Notes: generated from the sequence alone by a model not told the origin. Numbered from the stretch's first letter, positions 98 to 17,928 are shown. The stretch: DNA of 64,000 nt from Burkholderiales bacterium (GCA_038327925.1 JBBQLM010000020.1:9569-73568), one strand, 5' to 3'. Numbers and translations are program-made.

Positions 98-149
98 TTG
101 TCTGTCCCCAGTTCTTGCGACAGACAAAGCCGCCCGGTTGCGACATACT
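98..149 (+). promoter_or_regulatory. Putative operator + promoter upstream of sensor kinase 1
   Basis: Perfect inverted repeat TTGTCTGTC (98-106) / GACAGACAA (119-127) with a 12-nt spacer, preceded by the palindrome AGACAATTGTCT (92-103). GACAGACA is followed by N17 and CATACT (144-149). Six other sites in the window share this geometry. Confidence 0.6.
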
Positions 150-204
150 GCGCCCCCGACGCTGCCGCGAACCGCGCCAGACCACCACGCACCAACACCG
201 GACA

Positions 205-2133
205 ATGCGCAAGTTCGCCTCTCTGATCGCTTTCATGATGGTCTTCGGGCAAATGGCAGCCCATGCGGGCGAGCCCATGCACATCACCCGCGCGGATGTG
301 CTGGAAATCGATGGCCAGGGCTATACGCCCGCGCCATACGCCATCGCGTCCGAGGGACCGAAGGGCGACTGGGCATCGGAGCCCTTGCCCCGTGCCCCAC
401 GTCCACGGCACGCGCTGGGGCGCTTGCCCCAGGAAAGCGAGGCTCCGACCCGCACCACCTGGTACCGCGCGCAGCTTGTGGCTCCGGCGGACGCCGCCAC
501 CGCCGCGCCCACCTTCAATGGGGCGGACACGCCGCTTTACCTCTACATCCCGCGCTGGAAGTCGGACGGCTCCATCGCCGTGTATGGCAATGGCCGGCTG
601 CTCTACCAGTCCAAGGCAAACCTGCAATGGAACGGATCCAACCACCCGCTATTCATCGCGTTGGACACCACCGCCGATGCGCCGCCGCCGCGCGAGCTGC
701 TGATCCGCCTGCAGCACTTGCGCGGCATCGGTGGCGCGCTGTCGTCCCTGTGGGTTGGGCAGCATGCCGATCTGGCCTGGCGCTACACCATCCGCGAATG
801 GCTGCAAACCCAATTGCCGTTCATGTGCAGCGCGGCCTTTCTGTCCATCGGCGTCTTCGCCTGTCTGGTCTGGCGCAAGCATCGCCACAAAAAGCTGTAT
901 CTGCTGTTCTTCCTGATGTCGCTGGCGGCCTTCGTCCGCACGCTGCACGAACACGCCGGCGTGGAGCGCCTGCCGATCAGCGACGCGTGGTTTGGCTGGC
1001 TGACCGTCAACGCCTTGTTCTGGCTGCTCGCCCTCTCCCACCTGTTCCTGGTCCAGTTGCATGGCCGCGCGCGGCCCTGGTTGGCGAGGCTGGTGTTGCT
1101 GGTCGCAGCAGCCAGCACGCTCATCACCCTGCCACTGCCTGGCATGCCGGACGCAACCCTGGTTGCCGCCTTCCTCTACATCGCGCTGCTCCTGGTTGGC
1201 GGCGTGGCTTTCGCGCTGGACTGGCACGACGCGCGGCGCAGCCGCTCAAAAGACGGCATGCTGCTGGCCGGCTGGAGCCTGATGTTCATCCCGCTCGGCA
1301 TCTATGACTGGCTGCTGCAAAACAACCTGCGCAACATCGAAGGGACGTTTCTGACCAGCTACTCCAACATGGGCGCATTCATCCTGTTCTCCTACGCCCT
1401 GTTCCATCGCTACCGGATGGCCATCGCCGAAGTGGAGCACGTCAACGCCAGCCTGGAGAGCCGCTTGCAGGCGCGCGAGGCAGAGCTGACGCTGAGCCAC
1501 CAGCGCCTGCGCGAGATCGAGCAGCGCCAAACCCTGGCGCAGGAGCGCCAGCGCCTGATGCAGGACATGCACGACGGCCTGGGCTCTTCGCTGGCCAGCG
1601 CGCTGCGCGTGGTCGAGAAGGGCCGCCTGGGCGAGGCCGACGTGGCCCAGGTGCTCAAGGGTTGCATCGACGACCTGAAGCTGGCCATCGATTCCATGGA
1701 GCCGGTCGACGCCGACTTGCTGCTGTTGCTGGCCACGCTGCGCTTTCGCCTAGGGCCACGATTGGAGAGCACCGGGATTGCGTTGCGTTGGGAGGTAAAC
1801 AGCGTGCCGCCACTGGACTGGCTGGACCCCAAGCACGCGTTGCACATACTGCGCATCCTGCAAGAGGCGTTTACCAACATCATCAAGCACACCCAGGCCA
1901 CCGAGATCCACCTCAGCACCGCCGTGGAAAGCGACTGGGTGGTGGTGCGCATCACCGACAACGGCCAGGGCTTCGCGGTGGAGCAGGCCCTTCAAGGCGG
2001 CGGCAAGGGCCTGTCCAACCAGCAGCGCCGCGCGCAGGCCATTGGCGCCAAAGTGGATTGGGAAACAAGCATCGCGGGAACTTGCTTCCACCTCCATCTA
2101 CCTCTGCAACCCAGCGCAAACGGCATGCTGTAG
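205..2133 (+). CDS. Sensor histidine kinase, 7TM (7TMR-DISM-like) sensor, HisKA_3/HATPase_c transmitter (paralog 1)
   Basis: ORF 115..2133, with the start moved to ATG 205 (MRKFASLIAFMMVFGQMAAHA, signal-like) because the operator/promoter lies at 98-149. A ~190-aa periplasmic region is followed by about 7 hydrophobic segments. H-box DMHDGLGSSL and ATPase motifs NIIKHT, DNGQGF, GKGLSN are present. Confidence 0.85.
   Translation: MRKFASLIAFMMVFGQMAAHAGEPMHITRADVLEIDGQGYTPAPYAIASEGPKGDWASEPLPRAPRPRHALGRLPQESEAPTRTTWYRAQLVAPADAATAAPTFNGADTPLYLYIPRWKSDGSIAVYGNGRLLYQSKANLQWNGSNHPLFIALDTTADAPPPRELLIRLQHLRGIGGALSSLWVGQHADLAWRYTIREWLQTQLPFMCSAAFLSIGVFACLVWRKHRHKKLYLLFFLMSLAAFVRTLHEHAGVERLPISDAWFGWLTVNALFWLLALSHLFLVQLHGRARPWLARLVLLVAAASTLITLPLPGMPDATLVAAFLYIALLLVGGVAFALDWHDARRSRSKDGMLLAGWSLMFIPLGIYDWLLQNNLRNIEGTFLTSYSNMGAFILFSYALFHRYRMAIAEVEHVNASLESRLQAREAELTLSHQRLREIEQRQTLAQERQRLMQDMHDGLGSSLASALRVVEKGRLGEADVAQVLKGCIDDLKLAIDSMEPVDADLLLLLATLRFRLGPRLESTGIALRWEVNSVPPLDWLDPKHALHILRILQEAFTNIIKHTQATEIHLSTAVESDWVVVRITDNGQGFAVEQALQGGGKGLSNQQRRAQAIGAKVDWETSIAGTCFHLHLPLQPSANGML
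1462..2090 (+). repeat. Long direct repeat: transmitter-domain coding segment near-identical to 19900..20530
   Basis: Compared by eye, only scattered substitutions. The encoded peptide LQAREAELTLSHQRLREIEQRQTLAQERQRLMQDMHDGLGSS...ATLRFRLGPRLE is identical in both kinases. Confidence 0.85.
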
Positions 2134-2150
2134 CCAACGCCACCCCAGCC

Positions 2151-2200
2151 GTCTGTCCCCAAAACTAGCGACAGACAGACCCGCAATATTGCGGCACCAT
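2151..2200 (+). promoter_or_regulatory. Putative operator + promoter upstream of small secreted protein gene
   Basis: GTCTGTC (2151-2157), 12-nt spacer, GACAGAC (2170-2176). GACAGACA is followed by N17 and CACCAT (2195-2200). Confidence 0.55.
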
Positions 2201-2236
2201 GCGCCCGTCCTTCAACCATTCGAGAAAGCAATCACC

Positions 2237-2606: not shown

Positions 2607-3980
2607 TCAGGGTTTCACCGTCAACCCCTGGGTGGCATTGCGGAACGCATGGACCCGGTAGGTCCAGTTGGAGCCACCGCCCCAGAGGCTGTCAGCCCAA
2701 TGCTCCGCAGGCACCGTGCCCAGGGTCAGGGCCGGTGTCACCACTGAGGACCGCGTGGCCCCGTTCGCAGTCGTGGTCAGCAAACCCGTCCCATCGGTTT
2801 GAATGACAAAGGAGACAAAGCCCGGCATGCTTTCAATCAGCGCGACGCGCAAAGCATCCGGTTCCAGAAACGCCGGACGCAACACCTGCTCATCGCCCGC
2901 GCTGTCGGTGAAGCGGTACAGGCCGTCGCTACCCTGCTTGAGACTGGGCGCGCCTGGCGTGACCTTGGTCACCAGATGGTCGGGGTTGGCCGCATAGATG
3001 GTGCTGCCGCTCTGGACGGTGATCAGCCCCAGATCGTTGACCTTGGACGTCAAGCCCATGGAGGCCACGAGCGTGCCAAATTCGGTGTAGTTGAACCGCA
3101 CCGGTTCTGCGGAAAGGCTGCAATGCGGGACAGTCCATGTGATCACGATGGAGCCGTCACCACCTTTTGCACCCGGCGCGCCGCCATTGGATGCCACCGT
3201 GACCGCTCCACCGGTGCTTCCACCGCCACCACCACCGCCAAGCCAGGCGGCGCCGCCGCCGCCGCCGTAGCCGCCACCGCCGCCGCCGCCGAAGAGGCCA
3301 CCGGAGACGTTGAAATCAGCGAGGCAGTTGTGAAAAGCATCGCCGCTACCGCCGCTACCACCCCCGCTGCCAGCACCACCAATACCACCACTAATACTGC
3401 CGTCGATGACGTAGCCGTGGCTGTTGAGGTTGCCGCCACCGCCGCTACCACCGCTGCCACCGTTGCCGTTGCCGCCGTTTTGGCAGGAACCGACGAGGAC
3501 TCCGGGGCCACCATTGCCGCCGCTCCCACCGGCGCCCTGGCTGTAGCCGTAGCCCATGCCGCCGTCACCGCCGTTTCCGTCGCCACCGGCGCCCACGGCC
3601 CCGCCGCCGCCGCCGCCAGCTACAACTTGCTGTGTGGTTCCTGCATTCACCGTGCTGGAACCGCCGCCTCCACCGGCGAGCTGTCGCGTTGCGGCTCCTG
3701 CCTTCAAAACGTTGGAACCAGCGCCCCCGCCGCCGCCGACAAACAAGCTCAGCGTGGTGCCCCCTACGCCAGGCAACGTAGCGGTGACGACACCTCCCGC
3801 ACCACCGTTACCAACCCCGCCACCGCCACCTCCACCGGTGGCAACCACGTTGACCGAATACACGCCCGCGGGAATGGCGCAGGTCGCCGCGCCGGGAGTT
3901 GTGATGTTGCATGAGCCCGCATGGGCCGCCAAGCCGGTCAGGCCGGCAGCAAGGGCTAACAGAAGAGGTTTGAATTGCAT
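2607..3980 (-). CDS. Secreted glycine-rich protein (ALK/LTK-type Gly-rich domain-like) with diverged half-copy of the shared C-terminal module
   Basis: ORF 2607..4025, start moved to ATG 3980 (MQFKPLLLALAAGLTGLAAHAGS). Has beta-strand/poly-Gly alternation (VYSVNVVATGGGGGGG...TTLSLFVGGGGGAG). The C-terminus GSDGLYRFTDSAGDEQVLRPAFLEPDALRVAL...YRVHAFRNATQGLTVKP aligns to the distal ~140 aa of the module. Confidence 0.8.
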   Translation of the reverse strand: MQFKPLLLALAAGLTGLAAHAGSCNITTPGAATCAIPAGVYSVNVVATGGGGGGGVGNGGAGGVVTATLPGVGGTTLSLFVGGGGGAGSNVLKAGAATRQLAGGGGGSSTVNAGTTQQVVAGGGGGGAVGAGGDGNGGDGGMGYGYSQGAGGSGGNGGPGVLVGSCQNGGNGNGGSGGSGGGGNLNSHGYVIDGSISGGIGGAGSGGGSGGSGDAFHNCLADFNVSGGLFGGGGGGGYGGGGGAAWLGGGGGGGSTGGAVTVASNGGAPGAKGGDGSIVITWTVPHCSLSAEPVRFNYTEFGTLVASMGLTSKVNDLGLITVQSGSTIYAANPDHLVTKVTPGAPSLKQGSDGLYRFTDSAGDEQVLRPAFLEPDALRVALIESMPGFVSFVIQTDGTGLLTTTANGATRSSVVTPALTLGTVPAEHWADSLWGGGSNWTYRVHAFRNATQGLTVKP

Positions 3981-4033: not shown

Positions 4034-4080
4034 ATCGTAGGGACTTGCGCCCCGCCTGTCTGTCCCCAGAACTAGTGACA
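4034..4080 (-). promoter_or_regulatory. Putative operator + promoter for 2607..3980
   Basis: Gene-sense reading is TGTCACTAGTTCTGGGGACAGACA, then N17, then TACGAT (plus-strand atcgta 4034-4039, tgtctgtc 4057-4064). Confidence 0.6.
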
Positions 4081-4124
4081 AGCCCCGCCCCACGGCTGTG
4101 CTAGCGCCGGCCAAGGACTAGTAG

Positions 4125-4181: not shown

Positions 4182-4190
4182 TCCATACCA

Positions 4191-4949
4191 TCAAGGCTTC
4201 ACCGTCACCCCCTGCGCCGTGCCCAGCGGCTGGTTGTTGACCATGCGGTAGCGGGCTTTGCCGCCTTGCCCTGTGCCGTCTTGCCACACGCTCTGCCCCA
4301 CCCGCTCGGTGGGCACGCCCGAGACCGTCAGGTCTGGCACCAGCGTGTAGCGCTGGCCCTGGAACACGATGGTGGCGGTGCCGTCAAGCTGAATACTCAG
4401 CGTGGCGCTACCGTCCAGGCCCAGCAGAGCGTTGTGCAGCGCGGTCACATCGGCAAAGGCCGGGTACAGGATTTGGTGGTTGCCTTGGGCGTCGATGAAG
4501 TGCCAGTTGCCGTCAGCGCCTATGACCAATTGCGCGCTGCCCGTGGAGGGATCGAGTTGGACCTGCACACCGGGTTGCACCGCGTAGATCAGGCCGTTGA
4601 ACGTGGCAATCAGCACACCGTTGTCGGCCTGCCTGACCACCACGCCGGGCAAGAGGGCCAGCAGTTGGTCCAGGCTCACCAAAGCCGGGGTGATGACCAG
4701 CGACTGGCCGTTGCGCACGATCTGGTAGCGGCCATCGCCCAGGGGGTAGATGCCGTTGGCGCGCGGGTCACCGCTGCCTTGGTAGTTGCTGGGCACAAAG
4801 GCCAGCTTGCCACCGTTGAAGCCGCTCAGGGTGACGGTGCCCAGCGCGTTTTGGCCTATGGGTTGCAGCGGCTGGCCCAGCGCGTTGGAGAGCATGGCCA
4901 CCAGGTCGGCCAGGAAGGCCGGGCCTTCGCCAGCGGCCATGTTGACGAT
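4191..4949 (-). repeat. DNA repeat encoding shared C-terminal module (class 1)
   Basis: Near-identical at nucleotide level to 8534..9292 and clearly related to 12468..13220 and 16653..17408. Confidence 0.85.
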
Positions 4950-7900
4950 GGGCGGCAGCGCGGTGACGCCGGGGACGGTGACGGGCAACGGGGGAATGAC
5001 AGGCAGGGTGGGCGTGCTCACCGGGACCTGCACCGGGATGGCTTGCTTGAGGATGAAGCCATCCTGTTGACCGACCGCCGTCAGCGCCGGGGTGGTGAGA
5101 TTGCCGCCAAAACTCCCGCCCAGGGTGATATTGCCGACAGCATCCATGGCGATGGCATTGGCGTTGGCACTTGCCCCGCTGCCGCCGTAGTTCTTCGCCA
5201 AGCCAATGGCGCCGTTGGCGTCGAGCTTGAAGGCGAACACGTCTCTGTTGCCGATGAGCGTCAGCGCCGGGGTGGTGAGGTTGGTCGCGCTGCTGGCCTG
5301 CCCTGTGGAAAACACCCCGCCGAGGGCGACATTGCCAGCGGCATCGACGGCGATGGCATTCACCGAGGCATTCAACCCGCTGCCGCCAAAATTCTTGGCC
5401 CAGACGGCGGCGCCGGTGTTATCGAGCTTGAAGGCGAAGGCGTCTTGCGAGCCAATTTTGCTCAGCACCGGGGTGGTGAGGTCGCCAGACTCGAAATATC
5501 CACCCAGATAGACATTGCCGCTCCCATCCACCGCAATGCCGAAGGCCTCCGCAAACGCCCCGCTGCCGCCGAAGTTCTTGACCCAGAGGGTGGCGCCGCT
5601 GGCGTCGAGTTTGAGGGCGAAGGCGTCCCCCACGCCGATTTTCGTCAGCGCCGGGGTGGTCAGGTTGGCGGATTTGAAATTCCCGCCCAGATAGACATTG
5701 CCGCCGCCATCCACCGCGATGCCATAGCCGTAGGCCTTTGCCCCGCTGCCGCCGAAGTTCTTGGCCCAGGCGATGCTGCCGTCGGCATTCAGTTTGAAAG
5801 CAAAGGCATCGCTGTTGCCGAAGCTGGTCAGTGCTGGAGTGCCGAAGACACCGCCATTGAAATTCCCGCTGTTGCCAAAATCCCCGCCCAAATAAACCTT
5901 GCCGGAAGCATCCACCGCGATGCTTCGCGCATGGATAGTCGCCGCGCCGGCGAACCCCTGCGCCCAGACGGTAGCGCCGCCGGCATCGAGTTTGAGGGCG
6001 AAAGAAGCCCCCCAGGCGCTGAGCGGGCCCAAGGCCGGGGTGGTGAGACTGCCAGAGGTATCCCCTGTCAGATAAACATTGCCGGCGCCATCGACCGCGA
6101 TGGCTCTGGCAAGCGCACTCACGGGATCGTAGGCATAAGTCAGCCCGCTGTCGCCGAAATTCTTCGCCCACAGCACGCTACCGGCGGCGTTGATCTTGGC
6201 GGCGAAGGCATCCAGTGCGCCGATGCGGGTCAGGGTGGTGCCGCCCAGTGTCAGGCTGGCGCCAGCGAAAGAGCCGGCGATATAGGTGTTGCCCGCCGCA
6301 TCGACCGCCGTGGCGTTGATGCTGGTGAAGGCGCCGCTGCTGCCAAAGCTGCTGGCGGTAAAGCTGCTGGACGTGCTGACACTGGCCGAGGCGCTGGAGG
6401 CGCTGCTGTTGCCGATGCCGTTGGCCGCCGTCACGCGGAAGGTGTAGGCCGTGCCCAGCGCCAGGCCGACGATATGGTGGGTGGTGGCGGTGCTGCCGGC
6501 ATCCACATCCACCCCGCCTGCCGGGCTGGTGATCACCGTGTAGCCGGTGATCGCCGAGCCGTTGTCCGCCGGGGCGGTAAAGCTGACGGTGGCGACGTTA
6601 CCGGTGAGCGTGACGGTGGGCGCCGCCAGTTGCGACGGCGCACCGGCATAGGCGAACAAGCCGTTGCCGATGCCACCGGTGCCCGACGGGGTGGTCACGG
6701 TGACATCCACCGCACCGAAGCTCGTGGTGCTGGCGGGCACGGTGACGGTGATGGAGGTGGCGGAATTGACGGTCAAGGACGTGCCGGGGTTGGCACCGAA
6801 GTTCACCGCAGTGGCTCCGCTGAGGCTGTAACCGCTGAGGGTCACGACCGTGCCGCCGGAGACACCGCCACTGGCGGTGCTGAGGCTGTTGACAACCGGC
6901 AACACGGTCGTTTGCTTGAGGATGAGGGCGTCCGTCCTGCCATTCGGGGTAAAGGTCAAGGCAGGGCTGGTGAGGTTGCCGTTGTCGAAAGACCCGCCCA
7001 GATGAACGTTGCCCGAGACATCGACGGCAATGGCGAAAGCGTTGGCACTTACTCTATTGCCATAGCGATCCACACCGCCACCGCCGTAGTTCCTGGCCCA
7101 GGTGGTAGCGCCAAGGGAGTCGAGCTTGAGGGCGAAGGCATCTGTGCTGCCGATCTTGGTCAAAGCCGGGGTGGTGAGGTTGGCGCTGCTGAAATCCCCG
7201 CCCAGATAGACGTTGCCCAAGGCATCGACGGCGATGCCGGTCGCTGTGGCTATCGCCCCTGCGCTGCCGCCGTAGTTCCGGGCCCAGGCACCGGTGCCCG
7301 AAACGGAGCCGACCGAATCGAGCTTGAAGGCAAAGACGTCTCCCGTGCCGATCAGACTCAAGGCCGGGGTGGTGAGGTTGGCAGAATCGAAATTCCCGCC
7401 CAGATAAACGTTGCCCGAGGCATCGACGGCAATGGCATTGGCATAAGCACCCGCCCCGCTGCCGCCGTAGTTCCGGGCCCAGTCGGGGGAGCCATTGCTC
7501 GGATCGAGCTTGAGGGCGAAAGCATCCGCGCCACCGATCCTGGTCAAGGCCGGGTAGGTGAGGTTGGCGCTGTGGAGATAGCCAGCCAGATAAACATCGC
7601 CCCAGGTATCGACGGCGATGGCGTTGGCCCGCGTTGTCGCCCCGCTGCCGCCGTAGTTTTTGGCCCAGATGGTGGTGCCGTCGGCGGCATCGAGCTTGAG
7701 GGCGAAGGCATCCTGAACGCCGCGCACGATCTCCCCCAGGATGGAGGGGTTGGTTCCATTGCCAGAATACCCGCTCAAATAGACACCGCCCGTGCCATCG
7801 ACGGCGATGCCGGTGGTTTTGGTGTTTTGAACGGACGTGCCACCCAAAACTTTCGCCCAGAGGGTCGTGCCAGCGTCATCGAGCTTGATGACAAAGGGAC

Positions 7901-8373: not shown

Positions 8374-8420
8374 ATGGTAGGGACTTGCGCCGCGCCTGTC
8401 TGTCCCCAGAACTAGTGACA
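8374..8420 (-). promoter_or_regulatory. Putative operator + promoter for 4191..8333
   Basis: Plus-strand atggta 8374-8379 (sense TACCAT), N17, tgtctgtccccagaactagtgaca 8397-8420. Confidence 0.6.
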
Positions 8421-8464
8421 AGCCCCGCCCCATGGCTGTGCTAGCGCCGGCCAAGGACTAGTAG

Positions 8465-9292: not shown

Positions 9293-9658
9293 GGGCGGTA
9301 GCAGGGTTGTGCCGGGAATGGCCACGGGCAGCGGGGGAATGACGGGAGTGGGAATGGTGGGCGTGACCGAGCCACCCGTCACAGCGGCGGATACGCCGGC
9401 CATGAAGCCGGCAGCAAGCTGCTGGTTGCCGTTGCCGGTGCCGCCGACAATGGCTTCGCCAAGACCCCCGACAAGGAGGAAGCCACCATCGCCCATGATG
9501 CCCGCGCCAGCGCCGATCAGTGTGCTGTCAATGCTGTAATTGCCATCATTCATCGCCGAGACCGAAGTCGACGCGGCCCCCAGGGCAAGCGCCAGAAGAG
9601 GCAGCAATAAGCAGCGTCGCGGCAAGCCGCAGAAGGGTGTTTGGCGGATGCGCTTCAT
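8534..9658 (-). CDS. Secreted protein: short Gly-rich N-region + shared C-terminal module
   Basis: 374 aa with a signal peptide (...LLALALGAASTSVSAMND). The 252-aa C-terminal module is almost identical to that of 4191..8333. Its ATG overlaps the stop of the upstream GT2 gene (ATGA at 9655-9658). Confidence 0.85.
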   Translation of the reverse strand: MKRIRQTPFCGLPRRCLLLPLLALALGAASTSVSAMNDGNYSIDSTLIGAGAGIMGDGGFLLVGGLGEAIVGGTGNGNQQLAAGFMAGVSAAVTGGSVTPTIPTPVIPPLPVAIPGTTLLPPIVNMAAGEGPAFMADLVAMLSSALGQPLQPIGQNALGTVTLSGFNGGKLAFVPSNYQGGGDPRANGIYPLGDVRYQIVRNGQSLVITPALVSLDQLLALLPGVSVRQADNGVLIATFNGVTYVVQPGVQVQTDSATGAAQLVMGADGNWHFIDAQGNSQILYPAFADATALHNALLGLDGSATLSIQLDGTATIVFQGQRYTLVPDLTLAGVPTERLGQSVWQDGTGQGGKARYRMVNNQPLGTAQGVTVKP

Positions 9659-10737: not shown

Positions 10738-10744
10738 GGCGTGC

Positions 10745-12265
10745 CTAAGACGGGTAAAAGCCTCGTGTGCAGATCACATAGGTAAGGCCGTTCGGGGCGG
10801 CGGCACGCAGATCCGGCAAGGCGAAGGTGAGCGTATTGTCGCCACCGTAGGTGGCCCCCATAATCGCGTACAGCCCTGAGTTCTGGGCGATGGACAATAT
10901 CTGTCCCATCGCCCTTGTCCAATCTGCGGAATGGCGACCGGCTATCAATATCACCTGGCCAAGCATGCAACCGATCGCGTCTGGCTGGGTTCCCGCGACG
11001 GCATTGGATGTGCCCGTTCCGAACAGCGCCGCGGTACCCGCTGGGCCGGTGGCTCCCGTAGGCCCAACCACCCCTGCGGCACCCGCTGGACCGGTCGCAC
11101 CCGTCGCGCCAGCGGCACCGGCTGGGCCAGCGCTGCCGGTCGCCCCGGCAGGCCCCGTAGCACCTGCCAGTCCGGTCGCGCCGGTGGCACCAGTCGCTCC
11201 GGCCAGGCTGACGCCCGCCGGCCAGGTGCCGCCGGCCTTGGGGCCGAAGATCGCGCGGGTGGCGCTGTTGTAGTAGAAATCGCCGTTGTTGCCATCGCCG
11301 GCGGCGGGGTCCACCGTTCCCGTGAGCATCCCCGGCCCGGTCGCGCCGCTTGGGCCAGTGGCGCCGGTAGCACCTGCCGGACCGGCTGCACCGGTGGCGC
11401 CCGTCGCTCCGGCTAGGCTGACGCCCGCCGGCCAAGTGCCGCCGGCCTTGGGGCCGAAGATCGCGCGGGTGGTGCTGTTGTAGTAGGAATCGCCGTTGTT
11501 GCCATCGCCGGCGGCGGGGTCCACCGTTCCCGTAAGCATCCCCGCCCCGGTCGCGCCGCTTGGGCCAGTGGCGCCGGCTGCGCCAGTGGCCCCCGCCGGG
11601 CCAGTCGCTCCAGTCGCGCCAACTGCGCCGACTGGGCCAGCGCTGCCGGTCGTCCCGGCAGGCCCCGTGGCTCCTGCTGGCCCGCTTGGTCCGGTCGCGC
11701 CGGTCGCTCCGGTAGCGCCCGCAGGGCCGGTGGCCCCGGAGGCCCCACTGATCGTGCCGCAGGCCCAGCCGCTGGCGCCTTTGAGCAAAGTCTGGCCGGT
11801 GGCGCACGGTTCGCCAAGACTGGCGGCGGTGATCGCTCCGTTGGCCACGGTGGTAGCAGTATTGGCGGTGTTGGCCAACATCGCATAGGGCACCGATGAC
11901 AGCGCCTGGCGCGGCGTCATCTCGGCCCCGCTGCCGATCTGCACGCCCAGGTAATAGGGCGCGTCGAAGGCAAGATTGAGCGGCGTAACGCTACCCAGTT
12001 GCACCGCATAGAGCCCGTTGCCCACCGCAACCGACTGGGTTTCGCTCCACAGCATGGTGCCGCCACTGGCGGCGTCGTACAGCCTGAAGGTGATGCTCAG
12101 GGTGCTATTGACTGCCTGCCCGGCCTGGGTCAGCTTGCCTTGGTAGGAAATCTGCCGCACCGGCACCGTGGCCTGTGCTGCCCCGCCACACAACAACAAG
12201 GCTGAAACCAGCGCCAGCCGGCGGCAAGCGAAAAACCGGTGCGAAAAATGATCCGTGGCGGACAT
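10745..12265 (-). CDS. Secreted collagen-like triple-helix repeat protein with C-terminal phage-tail-collar domain
   Basis: ORF 10745..12310, start moved to ATG 12265 (MSATDHF..., GGAG 9 nt upstream) because the predicted -10 (12309-12314) lies downstream of 12310. Contains long G-X-Y tracts ([10 protein letters not shown]...). C-terminus ...[38 protein letters not shown]...GFYPS matches the tail-collar/MdpB-type pattern. Confidence 0.85.
11201..11585 (-). repeat. Tandem duplication (210-bp period) inside collagen-like gene
   Basis: 11201..11375 and 11411..11585 are near-identical. They encode two copies of [18 protein letters not shown](S/F)YYNS(T/A)[27 protein letters not shown]. Confidence 0.85.
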
Positions 12266-12308: not shown

Positions 12309-12355
12309 ATGGTAGGGACATCGAGCGCGCCTGTCTGTCCCTAGAACTAGTGACA
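12309..12355 (-). promoter_or_regulatory. Putative operator + promoter for collagen-like/GT2/module-protein operon
   Basis: Plus-strand atggta 12309-12314 (sense TACCAT), N17, tgtctgtccctagaactagtgaca 12332-12355. Confidence 0.6.
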
Positions 12356-12399
12356 AGCGCCAAGCGCCAACTGTGCTAGCGCCGGCCAAGGACTAGCAA

Positions 12400-12467: not shown

Positions 12468-13220
12468 TCATGGTTTCACCGTCAACCCCTGCGCCGTGCC
12501 CAGCGGCTGGTTGTTGACCACGCGGTAGCGGGCCGCGCCCTCTTGCCATGCGCTCTGCCCCACCCGCTCCGTGGGCACGCCGGCAAGCGTGGGGTCTGGC
12601 ACCAGCGTGTAGCGCTGGCCGTGGAACACGATGGCGGCGGTGCCGTCCAACTGGATGGCCGATGTGGCACCAAAGTCAAGGCCTAACAGCGCATTGCGCA
12701 GCGCCGCCGGGTCGGCAAAGGCGGGGTACAGCACCTGGTGGTTGCCCAGCGTGTCGATGAAGTGCCAGTTACCGTCAGCGCCCATCACCAGCCGTGCGTT
12801 GCCCGTTGCCGCGTCCAGTTGCACCTGCACGCCGGGTTGCACGACGTAGGTCACGCCGTTGAGGATGCCGGTGAGTACGCCGTTGTCGGCCTGCCTGGCC
12901 AGCAAACCGGGCAAGAGGGCAACGAGTTGCTCCACATGCACCAGCGCCGGGGCCAGCAGGATGGAATCGCCATTGCGCACCACCTGGTACTGGCCGTTGG
13001 CCAATGGGCTGGTCACGCGGTAGATGCCGTTGGCGCGTGTGTCACCGCTTTGGAACTTCAGCGGGATGAAGGCCAGCTTGCCGCCGTTGTAGCCACTCAG
13101 GGTGACGGTGCCGCACACGCCTTGTTCCACAAAGGCCAGGGGCTGGCCGACAGCAGCGGACAGCAGCGTGACCATGTCCGCCGTGAAGGCCGGGCCCAGG
13201 TCGGTGCCGAGGTTGAGGAT
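12468..13220 (-). repeat. DNA repeat encoding shared C-terminal module (class 2, with CGL...VCG cysteines)
   Basis: Closest to 16653..17408 and related to the class 1 copies. Confidence 0.8.
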
Positions 13221-14387
13221 GCCGGGCCAGGTGGCCAGCCCGCAACTGGGCGGCACGGCCAGCGGGGAAATGGTGGGGGCCGTTGGCGTTGGCGGTGGCC
13301 GTGGTGGTGGCGGTGGCGTCACCACCACGGCGATGCCAAACTTGCGCACGTTGTAGACAAAGAGGGCATCTCCCGCCTTGGTGGCGATGATGATGCAGTC
13401 GCCCACCGCCACGCCCGTCAGTGTGTTGCCGCTGACGGTGCAGTTGGCGGTGTCGGGCTCATAGGTGACCGCACCCGTTCCGCTGCCGCCCGTGGTGCTG
13501 AGCGTGACGCTGCCGCCCACGCTCACCGTGTCCGCGCTGGCGGACACCATGAGGCCGTTCTGGAAGTTCTTCTCGATGGTGAAGCTCTGCACGACTTGGG
13601 GTGCCGCGTCAAAGGTGGCGTTGCCCACCTGATCGGCAGTGATGGTGCAGGTGCCCGCCGTGACCGGGGTCAGCACATCATCGCTGGTGATGGTGCATAC
13701 CGCCGTGGTGGTGGATGCGAATGTCGGCGCCAGGCCGGACGATGCGGTGGCGCTCAGCGTGTGCGTGGTGCCCATGTTGAGCGCGCCTGGGTTGTCAAAG
13801 GTGATGGCCTGGGCGGTCAGCAGCGTCAGCCCGTCTAGCGCCGCCCCAGTCTGCCCGCCGCGCACCAGGCGGACATAGTTGGCGCCGGTCTTGGCGACCA
13901 AGTTGACGCCGCTGTACCAGAAGTCAATCGCCCACGCCTTGGTCGGGTCCCATGCGACCGTGGTGGAGGTCCAGGCGGCGCCCGCGCCCAACGCATCGCC
14001 TGACAAAGGCACGTTGGGGAAGGCAGTGGCATCTATCGCGGGGGAGCCCCATACGGCGTTGCCGATCAGGGTGATGGACTCCAGTTCCTTGATACTGGGC
14101 AGGCGCCAATCGTCAAAGCCCTTGTAGGCGGCGGTATTGGCCGCCACGGCGACGTTGAGTGCCTGCGCCCAGGTGGCCAACTGGCCCGTGCCCGTGGCGC
14201 ACGAGGCGTCGGAGAGGCCATAGGCGCAGTGGTCCCAGACCAGGCTGGTGGTGCTGTCACTGACCGTGCCATCGGCATTGACGGTAAGCGCGCCCCAGGC
14301 CGGCAAGGCCAGGCCCAGCACCAAGGTGGCAACGCTGGCCATGCCACGAAGCAGGCGCGTGAAGGAATGGGATGAAAGGGTGTGCAT
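12468..14387 (-). CDS. Secreted protein: DUF1566 (Lcl C-terminal-like) + Ig-like repeats + shared C-terminal module
   Basis: ORF 12468..14516, start moved to ATG 14387 (MHTLSSHSFTRLLRGMASVATLVLGLALPAWG). The DUF1566-type motif ...DDWRLPSIKELESI... is present. Two Ig-like repeats (tentative) and a poly-Pro linker (PPPPPRPPPTPTAP) precede the 250-aa module. Confidence 0.85.
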   Translation of the reverse strand: MHTLSSHSFTRLLRGMASVATLVLGLALPAWGALTVNADGTVSDSTTSLVWDHCAYGLSDASCATGTGQLATWAQALNVAVAANTAAYKGFDDWRLPSIKELESITLIGNAVWGSPAIDATAFPNVPLSGDALGAGAAWTSTTVAWDPTKAWAIDFWYSGVNLVAKTGANYVRLVRGGQTGAALDGLTLLTAQAITFDNPGALNMGTTHTLSATASSGLAPTFASTTTAVCTITSDDVLTPVTAGTCTITADQVGNATFDAAPQVVQSFTIEKNFQNGLMVSASADTVSVGGSVTLSTTGGSGTGAVTYEPDTANCTVSGNTLTGVAVGDCIIIATKAGDALFVYNVRKFGIAVVVTPPPPPRPPPTPTAPTISPLAVPPSCGLATWPGILNLGTDLGPAFTADMVTLLSAAVGQPLAFVEQGVCGTVTLSGYNGGKLAFIPLKFQSGDTRANGIYRVTSPLANGQYQVVRNGDSILLAPALVHVEQLVALLPGLLARQADNGVLTGILNGVTYVVQPGVQVQLDAATGNARLVMGADGNWHFIDTLGNHQVLYPAFADPAALRNALLGLDFGATSAIQLDGTAAIVFHGQRYTLVPDPTLAGVPTERVGQSAWQEGAARYRVVNNQPLGTAQGLTVKP

Positions 14388-14425
14388 GGCTGGGGTCTCA
14401 ATGAAGGGCAACATCGCGGGCACCA

Positions 14426-16423
14426 TCACGGACCGCTGCGCACAAGGCGCACAGCTAAGGACCCCGGCGGGGAGGACCGGTAGCCAGAGCCATTGAAGTC
14501 GAAGCCAACTACCCACACGAGCGTCGAACCAGGTGAGCGCGTTTCTGCTGTCCAGTAGAGGTTGCTCAGCGTGGAGGGGAAGTAGTCCACATCAATCAAC
14601 GGCGCGGCGCTTGCCCCGAAATGCACCAGCCCCATCAATTCGCGCCGGGTGGGCAGGCGCCAGCCGCTGCTGAAACCGCAACGGCTGGCGCTGTTGGTGG
14701 CCGCAGGCAGCGTGACCTGGGCATAGGTCGTCCACTCGCCCGTGCCGCTCTCCAGCGCCCAGACCAGGTTGGTCACGTTGTCCTTGGTGCAGGCCCAGTC
14801 GGTGCTTGCGTTGCCAGTGGCGGTGCCGCTGGTGTTGGCCACCAGTGTGCCGGTGCAGGTGCCGGCCCCTTGCAGATCGCCGTTGAAGCAAACCCTGGTG
14901 AAGTCAAAGCCCGCCACGCCGCCGCCCACCTTGGCGGGTGCCCCCACGTCACGGCCAAAGCGGCCGTCCTGGCGCGGCATGGCTGCGGCATCGCCCGTCG
15001 TGGCGGTGGTGCAGGCGGCCATCACGTTGCTGCCGTTGTCGCACAGCGTTTGCCCAGTGTCATTGAGCGCGCCAGTGGGGTGGCTGGCTTGGCCCACCGT
15101 GATGGCAACGGTGGCGGTGGCCGCTGTGTAGCTGGCGTCCGCCGCCTTGGTGGCGGTGATGGTGCAGCTACCGACCGCTGCTGCAGTCAAGGTCACGCCG
15201 CTGACCGTGCAGTTGGCGCTGTCGGATGCATAGGTCACCGCGCCCGTGCCGCTGCCACCCGTGGTGCTAAGCGTGGCGGTGCTGCCATAGGCGAGTGTTG
15301 TGTTGGTGGAAGACACACTCAACGCCGCCTGGTTGGCCTTGCCCACGGTGATGGCAACGGTGGCGGTGGCCGCTGTGTAGGTGGCGTCCGCCGCCTTGGT
15401 GGCGGTGATGGTGCAGCTACCTACCGCTGCTGCAGTCAAGGTCACGCCGCTGACCGTGCAATTGCTGCTGTTCGAGGCATACGTCACCGCGCCGCTGCCG
15501 CTGCCGCCCGTGGTGCCCAGCGTGGCCGTGTTGCCGTAGGCCGGCGTGGTGGTACTGGCATTCACCGCCAGCGCAGCCTGGACGGCCTTGGCCGCTGTAA
15601 TGGTGACGCTACGCGTGACCTCAATGCCGGCGCCATCGGTCACCGTCACAGAATAAGCACCCGCCGCCAGTCCGGTCGCGGTGGCTGCCGTTCCCCCGGA
15701 GGGCGACCAGCTGTAGGTGTAGGGCGTCCAGCCGCCGCTGGCCGTCACCGTGGCCGATGCATCGCTGGCACCGGCGGCGGAAGCCTGGGTGGCGCTGATG
15801 CTGGCAGAGAGTACCGGCGGTTGCACGATGGTCACGTTGCGCGTCATCACGCAGCTGTTGTAGTCGGTCACCGTCACCGTGTACGTACCCGCCCTCAATC
15901 CGGTGGCGGTACTGCTGCTCCCGCCGGAGGGGGACCAGCTGTACATATATCCGGGCGTCCCGCCATAGGCAGAGACACTGGCAGAGCCATTGCTGCCGCC
16001 GTTCACGGACACGTGGCTGATGCTGGTGGAAGCGGACAGGGCCGTCGGCTGGGTGATCGTGAACGAGCGCGTGGCCACGGTATTGACGCCATCGGTGACG
16101 GTGACGGTGTACGTCCCTGCGGACAGCCCCGTGGCATACAGAGAACTGCCCCCTGCGGGCGACCAGCTGTACGAATAGGGAGGCGTGCCGCCAGACGCGT
16201 TGACGGAGACCGCACCATTGGCGCCGCCGTTGCAGGCCACATGGGTCTGTATTCCCGTCACCGTTAGCGCGTAGGCCGGAGCCGACAGCGCGGCAAATAG
16301 GCTCAACAGGGGCACCAGCAGGCACCTGGCCGCGCAACGCAAGAAGCCGGTGAAGGAGCGGTCCGGCGACGCGCCGTTGATCGGGGTCGGCAACAGAGAC
16401 TTCAGAGGGTGTTTCATAGTCAT
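14426..16423 (-). CDS. Secreted protein: SprB-type repeats + Ig-like repeats + C-terminal DUF1566 domain (no shared module)
   Basis: 665 aa with a signal peptide ending ...SAPAYA. Three ~85-aa repeats fit the SprB-repeat pattern (V.CNGG.NG...V.A.GGTP.Y.YSWSP.GG....ATGL.AGTYTVTVTD). Two near-identical Ig-like repeats follow. C-terminus ...SSGWRLPTRRELMGLV... is DUF1566-like. Confidence 0.85.
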   Translation of the reverse strand: MTMKHPLKSLLPTPINGASPDRSFTGFLRCAARCLLVPLLSLFAALSAPAYALTVTGIQTHVACNGGANGAVSVNASGGTPPYSYSWSPAGGSSLYATGLSAGTYTVTVTDGVNTVATRSFTITQPTALSASTSISHVSVNGGSNGSASVSAYGGTPGYMYSWSPSGGSSSTATGLRAGTYTVTVTDYNSCVMTRNVTIVQPPVLSASISATQASAAGASDASATVTASGGWTPYTYSWSPSGGTAATATGLAAGAYSVTVTDGAGIEVTRSVTITAAKAVQAALAVNASTTTPAYGNTATLGTTGGSGSGAVTYASNSSNCTVSGVTLTAAAVGSCTITATKAADATYTAATATVAITVGKANQAALSVSSTNTTLAYGSTATLSTTGGSGTGAVTYASDSANCTVSGVTLTAAAVGSCTITATKAADASYTAATATVAITVGQASHPTGALNDTGQTLCDNGSNVMAACTTATTGDAAAMPRQDGRFGRDVGAPAKVGGGVAGFDFTRVCFNGDLQGAGTCTGTLVANTSGTATGNASTDWACTKDNVTNLVWALESGTGEWTTYAQVTLPAATNSASRCGFSSGWRLPTRRELMGLVHFGASAAPLIDVDYFPSTLSNLYWTAETRSPGSTLVWVVGFDFNGSGYRSSPPGSLAVRLVRSGP

Positions 16424-16492
16424 AGGAATAGGCTTTTGTTCTCTTGGTAACGCAGGGGGCCTCCCGAAACATCTTTGCCCGACCGGTGACGC

Positions 16493-16539
16493 ATCCTAGG
16501 AAAGGTTGGCGCGCCTGTCTGTCCCCAGAACTAGTGACA
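16493..16539 (-). promoter_or_regulatory. Putative operator + promoter for 14426..16423 / 12468..14387 operon
   Basis: Plus-strand atccta 16493-16498 (sense TAGGAT), N17, tgtctgtccccagaactagtgaca 16516-16539. Confidence 0.6.
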
Positions 16540-16584
16540 AGCCCCGCCCCACGGCTGTGCTAGCGTCGGCCAAGGACTAGTAGC

Positions 16585-16640
16585 CAAATAGGCCTCCAAC
16601 CCTCGTCATATCTACGCAAATAGCTATTGTTTTAGTAGCA
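16585..16640 (-). repeat. REP-like repeat, copy 4
   Basis: ccaaataggcctccaaccctcgtcatatctacgcaaatagctattgttttagtagca. Confidence 0.8.
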
Positions 16641-16652
16641 ATCCATTCTCTA

Positions 16653-17408
16653 TCAAGGCGTCACCGTCAGCCCCTGCGCCGTGCCCAGCGGCTGGTTATT
16701 GACCACGCGGTAGCGTGGCGCACCGCCTGGCCCCGCGCCCTCTGGCCACACCATCTGCCCCACCCGATCCGTGGGCACGCCGGCAAGCGTGAGGTCTGGA
16801 ACCAGCGTGTAGCGCTGACCGTGGAACACGATGGCGGCGGTGCCGTCCAACTGGATGGCCGATGTGGCACCAAAGTCAAGACCTAACAGCGCATTGCGCA
16901 GCGCGGTCACATCGGCAAAGGCGGGGTACAGGATTTGGTGGTTGCCTTGGGCGTCGATGAAGTGCCAGTTGCCGTCAGCGCCAATGACCAATTCCGCGCT
17001 GCCCGTCGCGCTGTCCAGTTGGACCTGCACACCGGGTTGCACCACGTAGATCAGGCCGTTGAACATGGCTATCAGCGCACCGTTGTCGGCCTGCCTGACC
17101 ACCACGCCGGGCAAGAGGGCGATGAGCTGCTCCACGTGCGCCAGCGCCGGCGCCAGCAGGATGGACTGGCCGCCTCGCACCACTTGGTATTGACCATTGG
17201 TCACGGGATAGATGCCGTTGGCGCGCGTGTCACCGCTTTGGAACTTCAGCGGGATGAAGGTCAGCTTGCCGCCGTGGTAGCCACTCAGGGTGACCGCGCC
17301 GCACACGCCTTGTTCCACAAAGGCCAGGGGCTGGCCCACGGCGGCGGACAGCAGCGTGACCATGTCCGCCGTGAAGGCCGGGCCCAGGTCGGTGCCGAGG
17401 TTGACGAT
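16653..17408 (-). repeat. DNA repeat encoding shared C-terminal module (class 2, mosaic)
   Basis: The flanks resemble 12468..13220. The central part (…GVVVRQADNG.LIA.FNGLIY.VQPGVQVQLD..TGSA.LVIGADGNWHFIDAQGNHQILYPAFADVTAL) matches 4191..4949. Confidence 0.8.
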
Positions 17409-17819
17409 GTCCGGCCAGATGGCGAGCCCGCAACTGGGTGGCACAGCCAGCGCGGTCATGGTGGGGGCTGCAACCGGTGGCGGCGGACTCACCGCCGCCT
17501 GCACCACAGTGATGGCAATCTTGCCGGTCGATACGGGGAAATTGGCGTCGGCCGCCTTGGTGACCGTGATAACGCAGCTACCAAGCGCAGTCGCCGTCAG
17601 GGTGCTGCCGCTGATTGCGCAGTTGGCGCTGTCGGACTCGTACGTGACTGCGCCTGTGCCGCCGCCGGTGGTGCTGAGCGTGACAGTGGTGCCGTAGGTC
17701 GGCGTGGTACTGGTGACAGACACGGCAATAGGGGATGCCGCCTGGGCAGCGCCCGCGTAGAGCAGCAAGGCGCTGGCCAAATGTGCGGCAAAAGCCGACA
17801 AAAGGGTGCAATGTTTCAT
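16653..17819 (-). CDS. Secreted protein: Ig-like repeat + shared C-terminal module
   Basis: 388 aa with signal MKHCTLLSAFAAHLASALLLYAGAAQA. One Ig-like repeat and a Pro-rich linker precede the 251-aa module ending GLTVTP. Confidence 0.85.
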   Translation of the reverse strand: MKHCTLLSAFAAHLASALLLYAGAAQAASPIAVSVTSTTPTYGTTVTLSTTGGGTGAVTYESDSANCAISGSTLTATALGSCVITVTKAADANFPVSTGKIAITVVQAAVSPPPPVAAPTMTALAVPPSCGLAIWPDIVNLGTDLGPAFTADMVTLLSAAVGQPLAFVEQGVCGAVTLSGYHGGKLTFIPLKFQSGDTRANGIYPVTNGQYQVVRGGQSILLAPALAHVEQLIALLPGVVVRQADNGALIAMFNGLIYVVQPGVQVQLDSATGSAELVIGADGNWHFIDAQGNHQILYPAFADVTALRNALLGLDFGATSAIQLDGTAAIVFHGQRYTLVPDLTLAGVPTDRVGQMVWPEGAGPGGAPRYRVVNNQPLGTAQGLTVTP

Positions 17820-17854
17820 GGGACTCCCTCAATGGGTCAAGACAATGGGGGGTG

Positions 17855-17928
17855 ATGCTATGTAGACCCGCGCGGTTTGTCTGTCCCTAGAACTAGTGAC
17901 AAGAATTGCGCGGCGATGTGGCACCATT
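17855..17928. promoter_or_regulatory. Divergent promoter region with operator, between 16653..17819 (-) and the response regulator (+)
   Basis: tgtctgtccctagaactagtgaca lies at 17878-17901. On the minus side there is N17 then sense TAGCAT (17855-17860). On the plus side GACAAGAA is followed by N16-17 and CACCAT/ACCATT (17922-17928). Confidence 0.55.

Follow-up and report, generated by a model that had tools for sequence, protein, structure and literature searches.

Seven copies of one operator-promoter element in a 64-kb stretch of Burkholderiales DNA (the window) are probably the activator-dependent σ70-type promoters of a single regulon, with a class II, lux-box-like architecture and under the control of a two-component system that is uncharacterized but widespread. 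In the mechanism that the sequence suggests, two paralogous membrane kinases, on sensing a putative signal, would phosphorylate a NarL-family response regulator, which would bind the operator as a dimer and recruit RNA polymerase in the class II manner known for LuxR at the lux box. Predicted targets are five units that encode secreted, adhesin-like proteins, most of them with one common C-terminal domain (CTD), as well as the small secreted protein and kinase 1. The divergent regulator-kinase 2 operon would probably also be switched on from the opposite side of site 7, thereby creating positive feedback. The cluster probably represents a surface-protein regulon that switches itself on.

Window searches bore out the seven sites reported in a sequence-only reading of this DNA, with their sequences, their coordinates, and their 17-nt spacing to a TAnnAT-like hexamer (Table 1). 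The operator is a 20-bp dyad, TGTCCCYAGWWCTRGGGACA, and each of the seven sites lies within two mismatches of perfect symmetry. Searching the window with the refined 20-bp consensus (≤3 mismatches) returned only these seven sites, where chance predicts 0.02, and all lie in its first 18 kb. On the minus strand, the 25-mer TTGTCACTAGTTCTGGGGACAGACA occurs at 4057, 8397, 12332, 16516, and 17878 with 0 to 1 mismatch, where 100 shuffles led us to expect none. The GTCTGTC-N12-GACAGAC palindromes described earlier for the two plus-strand sites are present (100-125 and 2151-2176), and symmetry there reaches further out, to 26 to 30 bp. Palindromy is nonetheless not limited to those two sites, since all seven are near-perfect 20-bp dyads, and the element as originally written covers just the outer positions of the dyad.

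Table 1. Genes and operator-promoter sites of the cluster (window coordinates).
Feature	Position	Strand	Details
Promoter/operator 1, before kinase 1	98..149	+	Dyad core 103-122 (TGTCCCCAGTTCTTGCGACA), symmetry to 98-127; CAGACA; 17-nt spacer; CATACT 144-149
Sensor kinase 1, 642 aa	205..2133	+	Periplasmic N-terminal part, multi-pass membrane region, HATPase_c (PF02518)
Promoter/operator 2, before small secreted protein	2151..2200	+	Dyad core 2154-2173; CACCAT 2195-2200
Small secreted protein, 120 aa	2237..2599	+	Signal peptide, conserved Cys pair
Gly-rich secreted protein with shared CTD	2607..3980	-	
Promoter/operator 3	4034..4081	-	Dyad 4061-4080; TACGAT 4034-4039; within repeat 4031-4189
1380-aa secreted protein	4191..8333	-	SBBP beta-propeller repeats, TIG, fn3, CTD
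Promoter/operator 4	8374..8421	-	Dyad 8401-8420; TACCAT 8374-8379; within repeat 8371-8529
Three-gene unit	8534..12265	-	Gene order shared with L001
Collagen-like protein with tail-collar domain (three-gene unit)	10745-12265	-	
GT2 glycosyltransferase with TPR (three-gene unit)	9655-10737	-	
374-aa CTD protein (three-gene unit)	8534-9658	-	
Promoter/operator 5	12309..12356	-	Dyad 12336-12355; TACCAT 12309-12314; within repeat 12306-12464
Two-gene unit	12468..16423	-	Start codons checked
SprB-repeat and Lcl_C protein (two-gene unit)	14426-16423	-	
Lcl_C and CTD protein (two-gene unit)	12468-14387	-	
Promoter/operator 6	16493..16540	-	Dyad 16520-16539; TAGGAT 16493-16498; within repeat 16490-16648
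388-aa secreted CTD protein	16653..17819	-	
Promoter/operator 7, divergent region	17855..17902	-	Dyad 17882-17901; TAGCAT 17855-17860; flanks unrelated to the four-copy repeat
Conserved block TGTGGCACCATTGCCACCC, regulator side of site 7	17917..17935	+	CACCAT 17922-17927, putative -10 of regulator-kinase 2 operon
NarL/FixJ-family response regulator, 229 aa	17970..18659	+	REC and GerE HTH; candidate dyad binder
Sensor kinase 2	18625..20550	+	Overlaps regulator gene (operon); start TTG 18625 or GTG 18703, uncertain

Spacing from site to hexamer is exactly 17 nt in seven out of seven cases, equivalent to 21 nt from the end of the dyad, and each hexamer precedes a plausible start codon of one of seven transcription units by 28 to 70 nt. 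The -10 hexamers are recognizable (TAnnAT or CAnnAT/CAnnCT), and the GACA directly 3′ of the dyad contributes to a weak -35, CAGACA; the -35 hexamers are uniformly poor and contain no TTG. A σ70 consensus scan scored none of the seven promoters at 9/12 or above, as expected of promoters in which a weak -35 creates the need for an activator. If transcription starts 7 nt after the hexamer, the dyad would be centered at about -43.5, over the poor -35; class II activator sites are typically centered at around -41.5 to -43.5.

This geometry is not peculiar to the window. Scanning the genomes of 185,579 species yielded 32 stretches, 25 of them from Betaproteobacteria, and in nearly all of them the offset to a -10-like hexamer is unchanged. 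Since the scan pattern demanded GTC before TGTCCC, this sample is in part predetermined to show the GAC extension on the productive side, and we estimate that about ten matches to the pattern would arise by chance. Some chance matches may be found among the 7 non-betaproteobacterial stretches, which contain no regulator ortholog within 8 kb. Among 103 unique site-orientations, nAnnnT stands exactly 21 nt past the dyad in 48 and TAnnnT in 32, compared with 0 to 9 and 0 to 2, respectively, at the other offsets from 12 to 31. An orthologous, rearranged metagenomic locus (L001) has five sites before the same gene classes with the same spacing; it retains the orthologs of operator 1 (16512-16537, a near-perfect 26-bp palindrome) and operator 2 (14453-14478) and the order of the three-gene unit (7286-11110). 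Locus L005 has two sites and preserves promoter 6 together with its 5′ leader (14460-14585). Dyad and spacing are also kept in distant genera next to unrelated flanking genes, and the targets elsewhere encode adhesins and other secreted or surface-located proteins (TPS/FHA, cadherin-like, RTX, IPTL-CTERM, pilin, secretin, and Lcl_C).

The earlier proposal of a dimeric activator seated over the -35 finds support in the 20-bp dyad and its base-fixed offset across genomes, with activation, as opposed to repression, being deduced from the geometry. NarL-family regulators can act as repressors, and the overlap of the dyad with the -35 position would also suit a repressor operator, on which the regulator or another dimeric factor blocks RNA polymerase until signaling brings about derepression. 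We consider such repression unlikely, given the uniformly poor -35 hexamers and the failure of the consensus promoter scan to detect any of the seven sites. The base-exact distance between dyad and -10 in 48 site-orientations from many genomes also fits an activator touching RNA polymerase, whereas a repressor needs mere promoter overlap. Bidirectional use, in which one dyad has a promoter on either side at equal offset, also speaks against a repressor.

Four of the sites (4057, 8397, 12332, and 16516) sit inside whole-intergenic repeats of ~160 nt each, which run on into the repeated 3′ ends (~750 nt) of the upstream genes to form units of ~0.9 kb. These promoters would have multiplied as cassettes, each carrying along the 3′ end of the gene before it. 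Because of this duplication, the seven sites count as about four independent witnesses; the sequence-only reading was correct in its seven identical spacings and overstated their independence when it called them unlikely by chance. Taken to the extreme, the repeats could be a mere by-product of segmental duplication or gene conversion and the motif devoid of regulatory function, a view with which the ~160-nt repeats joined to repeated gene ends and a gene-conversion-like tract in kinases 1 and 2 would agree. The conservation of dyad and spacing across distant genera contradicts this reading, which we hold to be almost certainly wrong. Operator identity is 96 to 100% in all site pairs, while upstream flanks are 66 to 85% identical among the four repeat copies and 21 to 23% identical to that of site 17878, the 17-nt spacers 24 to 94%, and the downstream DNA 17 to 50%. 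Inside the repeats, operator and T-A-n-n-A-T positions stay unchanged as spacer and flanks drift; selection on the operator is thus visible despite duplication. Moreover, sites 1, 2, and 7 have operator and spacing in common and are otherwise embedded in unrelated flanks.

Several observations connect the dyad of these predicted promoters to the regulator. Regulator orthologs (58 to 95% identity) adjoin it in L001, in L005, and in 15/32 motif-selected stretches, and a regulator or kinase ortholog does so in 17/32. In a reverse test, all four regulator orthologs picked by protein similarity alone turned out to have a dyad 92 to 100 nt upstream of the start codon, against a chance level of 0.04 to 0.12 matches per locus, and on the regulator side a hexamer stood at +20 or +21. 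Among 24 regulator orthologs, the recognition-helix region SRHTVLT[FY]VRRIY hardly varies, which we see as the counterpart of the invariant operator. Ortholog linkage, reverse test, and recognition helix together favor the NarL/LuxR-type regulator of the window as the likely dyad binder, as the first reading had suggested. Alternatively, the motif might be read by another protein, i.e., either a transcription factor encoded elsewhere or an alternative sigma factor using GGGACA/GACAGACA as a -35, with the two-component system as a target or bystander. About half of the motif-selected stretches have no regulator ortholog within 8 kb, and a few scan matches fall in Actinobacteria, Verrucomicrobiota, and Pseudomonas, both of which would be compatible with such a factor. 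Regulator-less stretches, however, often belong to genomes in which another part of the same contig or chromosome encodes a regulator (L020 with L014; L033 with L035), and the two-fold symmetry and bidirectional use of the dyad point to a dimeric HTH protein instead of a sigma factor. With the outcome of the reverse test, the frequent adjacency of the regulator, and the invariance of both helix and operator also against it, we judge another reader of the motif to be very unlikely.

The regulator, our candidate for binding the dyad, consists of a receiver domain (PF00072, 68.3 bits), whose acidic pocket, phospho-acceptor Asp, Thr, and Lys (D17, D18, D62, T90, and K112) are invariant in the 24 orthologs, and a GerE/LuxR-type helix-turn-helix (PF00196, 54.3 bits). 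Its nearest solved structures, matched full-length, are VraR, DesR, DevR, and NarL. It scored under every NCBIfam equivalog cut-off (best scores: MadR, 103.5 versus 300 bits; NarL, 97.4 versus 250; MctR, 84.2 versus 300), and the kinase reached 75 against the cut-off of 700 for MctS. The named NarL-family systems NarXL, NarQP, UhpAB, MadRS, MctRS, and GacA/UvrY were discarded on these equivalog scores. The C-terminal half of kinase 1 resembles NarQ/NarX/UhpB/LiaS-type kinases, and its membrane region weakly matches 7TMR-DISM_7TM (PF07695, 30.1 bits; cut-off, 29). Kinase 2 gave no 7TMR-DISM_7TM match at an E value of <0.01, and DISMED2 was not detected. The transmitters of the two kinases are ~99% identical, and their sensor parts differ; both genes carry the gene-conversion-like tract.

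Control of their own genes is common among NarL/FixJ-family regulators, and the autoregulation anticipated in the sequence-only reading is likewise predicted by our data. Kinase 1 is preceded by its own site with canonical spacing, and site 7 is shared by the divergent regulator-kinase 2 operon, on whose side a conserved CACCAT lies 20 nt from the dyad (16-nt spacer). This putative -10 is weak and one base closer than canonical. The surrounding block, which also contains a GTGGCA-N4-TGCCAC palindrome, is identical in the window, L001, and L005, and a related regulator-side element occurs in L021, L023, and L032. Regulator and kinase genes overlap in L001 and L005 too. The regulator gene has a dyad upstream in these two loci, in the four orthologs of the reverse test, and, among the 15 motif-selected stretches with a regulator ortholog, in 14. 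In other genomes, a -10-like hexamer stands at +20 or +21 on the side facing the regulator. Just 40 nt separate the dyad from the regulator start codon in L023 and L032, so the geometry of the regulator-side promoter is not uniform.

The closest architectural parallel is provided by LuxR/TraR class II promoters (lux box/tra box). Common traits are a 20-bp dyad bound by a GerE HTH dimer (predicted here), which overlaps and replaces a poor -35, is centered ~42 to 44 bp upstream of the start (a putative one in our case) ahead of a recognizable -10, and is able to serve divergent promoters. Unlike LuxR/TraR, the regulator has a phospho-receiver rather than an acyl-homoserine-lactone-binding domain, and the TGTCCCYAGWWCTRGGGACA dyad is unrelated in sequence to the lux box. 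A quorum-sensing LuxR/lux-box system was ruled out on the basis of this N-terminal receiver domain and the different dyad. The regulator shares its REC-GerE composition with NarL/NarP, UhpA, EvgA, and GacA, and its partner kinase has a NarX/UhpB/LiaS-like transmitter. In contrast to those systems, the operator is a contiguous 20-bp dyad instead of 7-2-7 heptamers, and the sensor is a multi-pass membrane kinase with a weak 7TMR-DISM match. In Burkholderia thailandensis, the NarL/FixJ-family regulator BubR of the BubSR system activates a pilus operon in addition to its own genes (PMC11661271), and the Pseudomonas aeruginosa two-component system PprAB confers a distinct biofilm signature (PMC3510237). 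Both resemble our system in overall logic and output class and are analogs, not orthologs. BubS is a kinase of another type, unorthodox and equipped with receiver and Hpt domains, and a hybrid-kinase system of the general BubSR kind is found at the CTD loci L003, L006, and L007, which have no dyad. To our knowledge, no operator is common to this regulon and BubSR or PprAB.

In many Betaproteobacteria, the dyad accompanies the same unnamed and highly conserved response regulator and marks a surface-protein regulon; between orders, the regulator retains 70 to 79% identity, and the operator scarcely changes. It is conceivable, although rather doubtful, that this pair constitutes an unnamed master switch for surface attachment across much of Betaproteobacteria and some Methylococcales, in which the regulon grows by plug-in cassettes and the CTD is a new secretion/anchoring module. 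In such a scenario, the ~0.9-kb unit comprising the rare CTD, the intergenic region, and the operator-promoter would have been copied in this lineage, and a new adhesin "head" placed between two units would gain regulator control and a CTD at once. Among 5.8 billion proteins, the CTD has only 37 relatives; it shows no recognizable fold and would represent a new module for secretion or cell-surface anchoring. The small secreted protein matches no Pfam family above the cut-off. It is 30% identical (E value, 1e-5) to a protein encoded downstream of a dyad in L016, which has relatives at 70% (L042) and 63% (L006) identity, and proteins of this type recur next to the regulator gene in other genomes as members of the regulon.

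Seven operator-promoters in the first 18 kb of the window share one element. The 25-mer TTGTCACTAGTTCTGGGGACAGACA occurs on the minus strand at 4057, 8397, 12332, 16516 and 17878 with at most one mismatch (none expected by chance), and the palindromic form GTCTGTC-N12-GACAGAC lies at 100-125 and 2151-2176. Read in gene sense, exactly 17 nt separate operator and hexamer at all seven sites; start codons follow 28-70 nt downstream of the hexamers and open ORFs for signal-peptide-bearing proteins or a kinase. The sites, sequences, coordinates, spacing and hexamers claimed by the sequence-only reading proved correct in every detail that the sequence can tell. Its GTC/GAC palindrome stood in part: the arms are real but extend the true element, a 20-bp dyad carried by the operator sequence TGTCACTAGTTCTGGGGACA. 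All seven sites match the dyad consensus TGTCCCYAGWWCTRGGGACA within 2 mismatches, against 0.02 expected, so that the former "spacer" holds conserved symmetric bases; no further copy was found in the 64-kb window at up to 3 mismatches. GACA directly 3' of the dyad on the transcribed side makes CAGACA the -35 position. A LexA-like reading of the operator (CTGT-N8-ACAG) was rejected, the spacing here being N14.

The seven sites had also been taken as independent evidence. Their recurrence is real, but sites 3-6 lie within whole-intergenic repeats of ~160 nt, and the window thus provides only about four independent witnesses, i.e., sites 1, 2 and 7 plus one repeat family. Alignment of the repeat families (D2, D3, D8 and D10) indicates that the intergenic repeats extend over the final ~750 nt of the upstream genes. 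Each duplicated unit (~0.9 kb) joins the end of a gene, coding for a shared C-terminal domain, to the complete intergenic region and the promoter of the gene that follows, and likeness between units ends directly past the -10 hexamer. Judged from sequence comparison, the operator is under visible constraint despite this duplication. Its 25 nt are 96-100% identical in ten of ten pairs; pairwise identity is 24-94% for the 17-nt spacer, 17-50% for the DNA downstream and 66-85% for the upstream flank among the four repeat copies, falling to 21-23% between the flanks of these copies and that of site 7. In the same comparison of operator segments, variation of the -10 hexamers is confined to the two middle positions. 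Nothing in Rfam matched between 1 and 21 kb, so the long intergenic repeat does not correspond to a known RNA.

Features of the cluster and of related loci (gene assignments from Pfam and NCBIfam; window coordinates unless a locus is named)
Feature	Coordinates	Strand	Remarks
Membrane sensor kinase 1	205-2133	+	HATPase_c, marginal 7TMR-DISM_7TM
120-aa secreted protein	2237-2599	+	
Gly-rich secreted protein	2607-3980	-	
SBBP / TIG / fn3 giant protein	4191-8333	-	
374-aa protein	8534-9658	-	
GT2 glycosyltransferase with TPR	9655-10737	-	
Collagen-like protein with tail collar	10745-12265	-	
Lcl_C protein	12468-14387	-	
SprB-repeat + Lcl_C protein	14426-16423	-	
388-aa protein	16653-17819	-	
NarL/FixJ-type response regulator	17970-18659	+	REC + GerE
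Sensor kinase 2	~18625-20550	+	overlaps regulator gene
Site 1 hexamer	144-149		CATACT
Site 2 hexamer	2195-2200		CACCAT
Site 3 hexamer	4034-4039		TACGAT
Site 4 hexamer	8374-8379		TACCAT
Site 5 hexamer	12309-12314		TACCAT
Site 6 hexamer	16493-16498		TAGGAT
Site 7 hexamer	17855-17860		TAGCAT
Intergenic repeats (~160 nt)	4031-4189, 8371-8529, 12306-12464, 16490-16648		sites 3-6
Duplicated units (~0.9 kb)	4031-5000, 8371-9300, 12306-13280, 16490-17460		
3' gene parts coding for the C-terminal domain	2607-3400, 4191-5000, 8534-9300, 12468-13280, 16653-17460	-	
Post-stop element, window	4085-4189, 8425-8529, 12371-12464, 16544-16648		
Post-stop element, related loci	L002 4681-4750; L003 11366-11431; L005 9799-9860, 11693-11760, 16778-16840		
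GGGACCTAGGTCCC-type palindromes	L003 7100-7115, 13853-14010; L007 13707-13945		

A scan of 185,579 species, each represented by a single genome, with the pattern GTCTGTCCCYMRWWYTDGBGACA, for which we estimate ~10 chance matches, returned 32 stretches. Betaproteobacteria account for 25 of them (Polaromonas, Rhodoferax, Acidovorax, Xylophilus, Glaciimonas, Rugamonas, Methylophilaceae, Sideroxydans and Bordetella bronchiseptica). Since any one genome yields only one or two matches, the motif is no generic repeat scattered through genomes; had it been one, the proposal would have been refuted by a criterion of the sequence-only reading itself. In gene sense, nearly all matches are followed by A-R, 16 nt and a TAnnAT-like hexamer. 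Among the 103 unique site-orientations of all loci collected, nAnnnT stands exactly 21 nt past the dyad in 48 and TAnnnT in 32, other offsets from 12 to 31 giving 0-9 and 0-2, respectively. A regulator ortholog (58-78% identical by tblastn) was found inside 15 of the 32 stretches, each of at most 8 kb, and a kinase ortholog without the regulator in 2 more. In the commonest arrangement the regulator gene and a target gene diverge with the dyad in between, as in the window.

Dyads also turned up outside Proteobacteria, in two Microbacterium loci (L011 1377-1396, L029 3660-3679), Cellulomonas (L009) and Verrucomicrobiota (L031), as well as in Pseudomonas syringae (L039). No regulator ortholog was found within the 8 kb examined at these five loci, and their dyads may have arisen by chance or serve some unrelated factor whose site is similar; both Microbacterium loci have a TACGAT or TAGAAT hexamer at the right offset. 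The AT-rich sequence around the dyad of a MAG contig labeled Bordetella parapertussis (L018) is close to that of a Methylophilaceae locus (L035), and the taxonomic label of this contig looks doubtful.

The reverse test started from the regulator protein. It belongs to a large group with tight conservation: the top 120 matches are at least 70% identical and include Rhodoferax, Glaciimonas, Sulfuriferula, Sideroxydans, Gallionellaceae and Methylobacter. In four of four contigs picked by length and taxon alone, hence without reference to the motif, a dyad matching at 17-19 of 20 positions lies 92-100 nt upstream of the regulator start codon, where chance would yield 0.04-0.12 matches per locus. 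On the regulator-facing side, nAnnnT stands at +21 in every one of them, and in three it does so on the opposite side as well; one (L043) has another dyad in front of a ShlB/TPS two-partner-secretion operon. The catalytic residues of the receiver domain and the recognition-helix region (SRHTVLT[FY]VRRIY.KL.V) vary little or not at all across 24 orthologs, which fits the unchanging operator. The nearest solved structures are VraR, DesR, DevR and NarL, and the protein falls below every NCBIfam equivalog cut-off.

A consensus sigma-70 scan found none of the seven promoters, which we therefore read as weak and activator-dependent; a terminator scan yielded nothing convincing between units. If transcription starts ~7 nt past the hexamer, the dyad spans -53 to -34, centered near -43.5, and overlaps a poor -35. 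The fixed offset, weak -35, 20-bp dyad and LuxR-type HTH protein together point to class II activation of the lux-box kind, a comparison that draws on what is established for LuxR/TraR and for the NarL family. Promoter geometry and analogy with these proteins thus make it quite probable that the phosphorylated regulator would activate the dyad promoters in this way, and repression, the main rival, appears rather unlikely. Activation would include autoregulation, first of kinase 1, which has a canonical site. The regulator-kinase 2 operon would probably be reached through the other face of site 7 (CACCAT at 17922-17927, 16-nt spacer). This is the weakest step, as the proposed -10 is poor and displaced by one base, and two other loci (L023 and L032) differ in regulator-side geometry.

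Two closely related loci bear on this divergent region. L001 is orthologous but rearranged (regulator 95% identical), and its five dyads precede the gene classes known from the window, namely those of the 390-aa protein, the SBBP protein, the collagen operon, the small protein and kinase 1. In L005, whose regulator is 87% identical, there are two dyads, both followed by 17 nt and TATGAT or TACCAT; one is altered in its interior and retains TTGTC and TTCTGGGGACAGACA. A three-way alignment with the window reveals three conserved islands in otherwise diverged DNA, namely the dyad, the target-side -10 and a regulator-side block, TGTGGCACCATTGCCACCC (window 17917-17935), identical in all three at a fixed distance from the dyad and with related copies in L021, L023 and L032. 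This block holds the putative -10 of the regulator operon. It is also a GTGGCA-N4-TGCCAC palindrome, which could bind a second factor. A sigma-54 reading of the regulator-side TGGCACCATTGCC was rejected, the GG-to-GC spacing read from the sequence being wrong.

The two kinases are ~45% identical in their sensor and membrane part and ~99% identical over ~190 residues of the DHp and catalytic domains. The near-identical tract suggests gene conversion and that both kinases signal to the same regulator. The small secreted protein of the window is distantly homologous (30% identity, E 1e-5) to a protein 3' of the dyad in locus L016, which itself has close relatives adjoining the regulator in L042 and in L006.

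Five secreted proteins of the cluster close with a common C-terminal domain of ~250 residues ending GTAQG[VL]TV[KT]P. The domain is without any Pfam or NCBIfam match and rare (37 relatives among 5.8 billion proteins); the best protein-database match is 89% identical. On every contig long enough, such proteins adjoin a NarL-type regulator and a kinase. The AlphaFold model is moderate (mean pLDDT 62; two modules, each of helix plus sheet, reach 80-93), and a fold search against the PDB found no match (best E 0.008, TM about 0.12). The dyad is absent from the more distant loci encoding the domain (L002, L003, L004, L006 and L007), which have a different NarL-type regulator with a hybrid kinase. 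In L003 and L007, GGGACCTAGGTCCC-type palindromes (GGGAC-N4-GTCCC) lie upstream of the regulator gene in place of the dyad, and L003 has them in front of an Lcl_C gene as well. Just 3' of the stop codons of the domain-encoding genes is an element, TTGCTAC..AAA..TAGC..TACGCA..ACGAGGGCT..GGCC.ATTT, which had no Rfam match, is also found in distant dyad-less loci and recurs as a 23-nt piece at window 58624-58646. Co-duplication of the domain with the downstream promoter may represent a cassette-like recruitment of genes into the regulon. The analysis brings to light a rare domain family and, as a hypothesis, this way of regulon growth.

Elsewhere, the genes downstream of the dyad encode TPS/filamentous-haemagglutinin-type proteins, cadherin-like and Big_9 giant proteins, an RTX protein, an IPTL-CTERM protein, a TPR-secretin, an Lcl_C protein, a pilin-like protein with an N-methylation motif, orphan LuxR-type regulators and small secreted proteins. 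The nature of these genes suggests cell-surface and secreted adhesion machinery as the predicted output of the regulon. A search of openly accessible literature found no description of this operator or system, and a paper on stalk genes proved to have no bearing on it. BubSR of B. thailandensis, with a self-activating NarL-family regulator that controls a pilus (PMC11661271), is analogous in regulator family, self-activation and pilus control but differs in kinase architecture. Neither BubSR nor MgbTC is the system described here. Our finding is a well-defined, widely conserved operator-regulator pair with its regulon rather than a new regulatory principle. A widespread, unstudied two-component system, present in Polaromonas, Rhodoferax, Acidovorax, Glaciimonas, Methylophilaceae, Sideroxydans, Bordetella bronchiseptica and Methylobacter, gains a precise operator, a promoter geometry and a predicted regulon of adhesins, two-partner-secretion proteins, pilins, a secretin and small secreted proteins. 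This regulon can now be read from the sequence of carrier genomes, including environmental MAGs and a pathogen's relatives.

The window has no tRNA genes. Farther downstream is a low-GC island (~50100-51800; 49% versus 64.5% GC), in which three ORFs of 184, 116 and 206 aa lie on the minus strand. The island is flanked by a gene for a sensor kinase (48426-49913) on one side and, on the other, by a large gene (51885-54131) whose product has a C-terminal tail, hydrophobic and rich in Arg, resembling a sorting signal.
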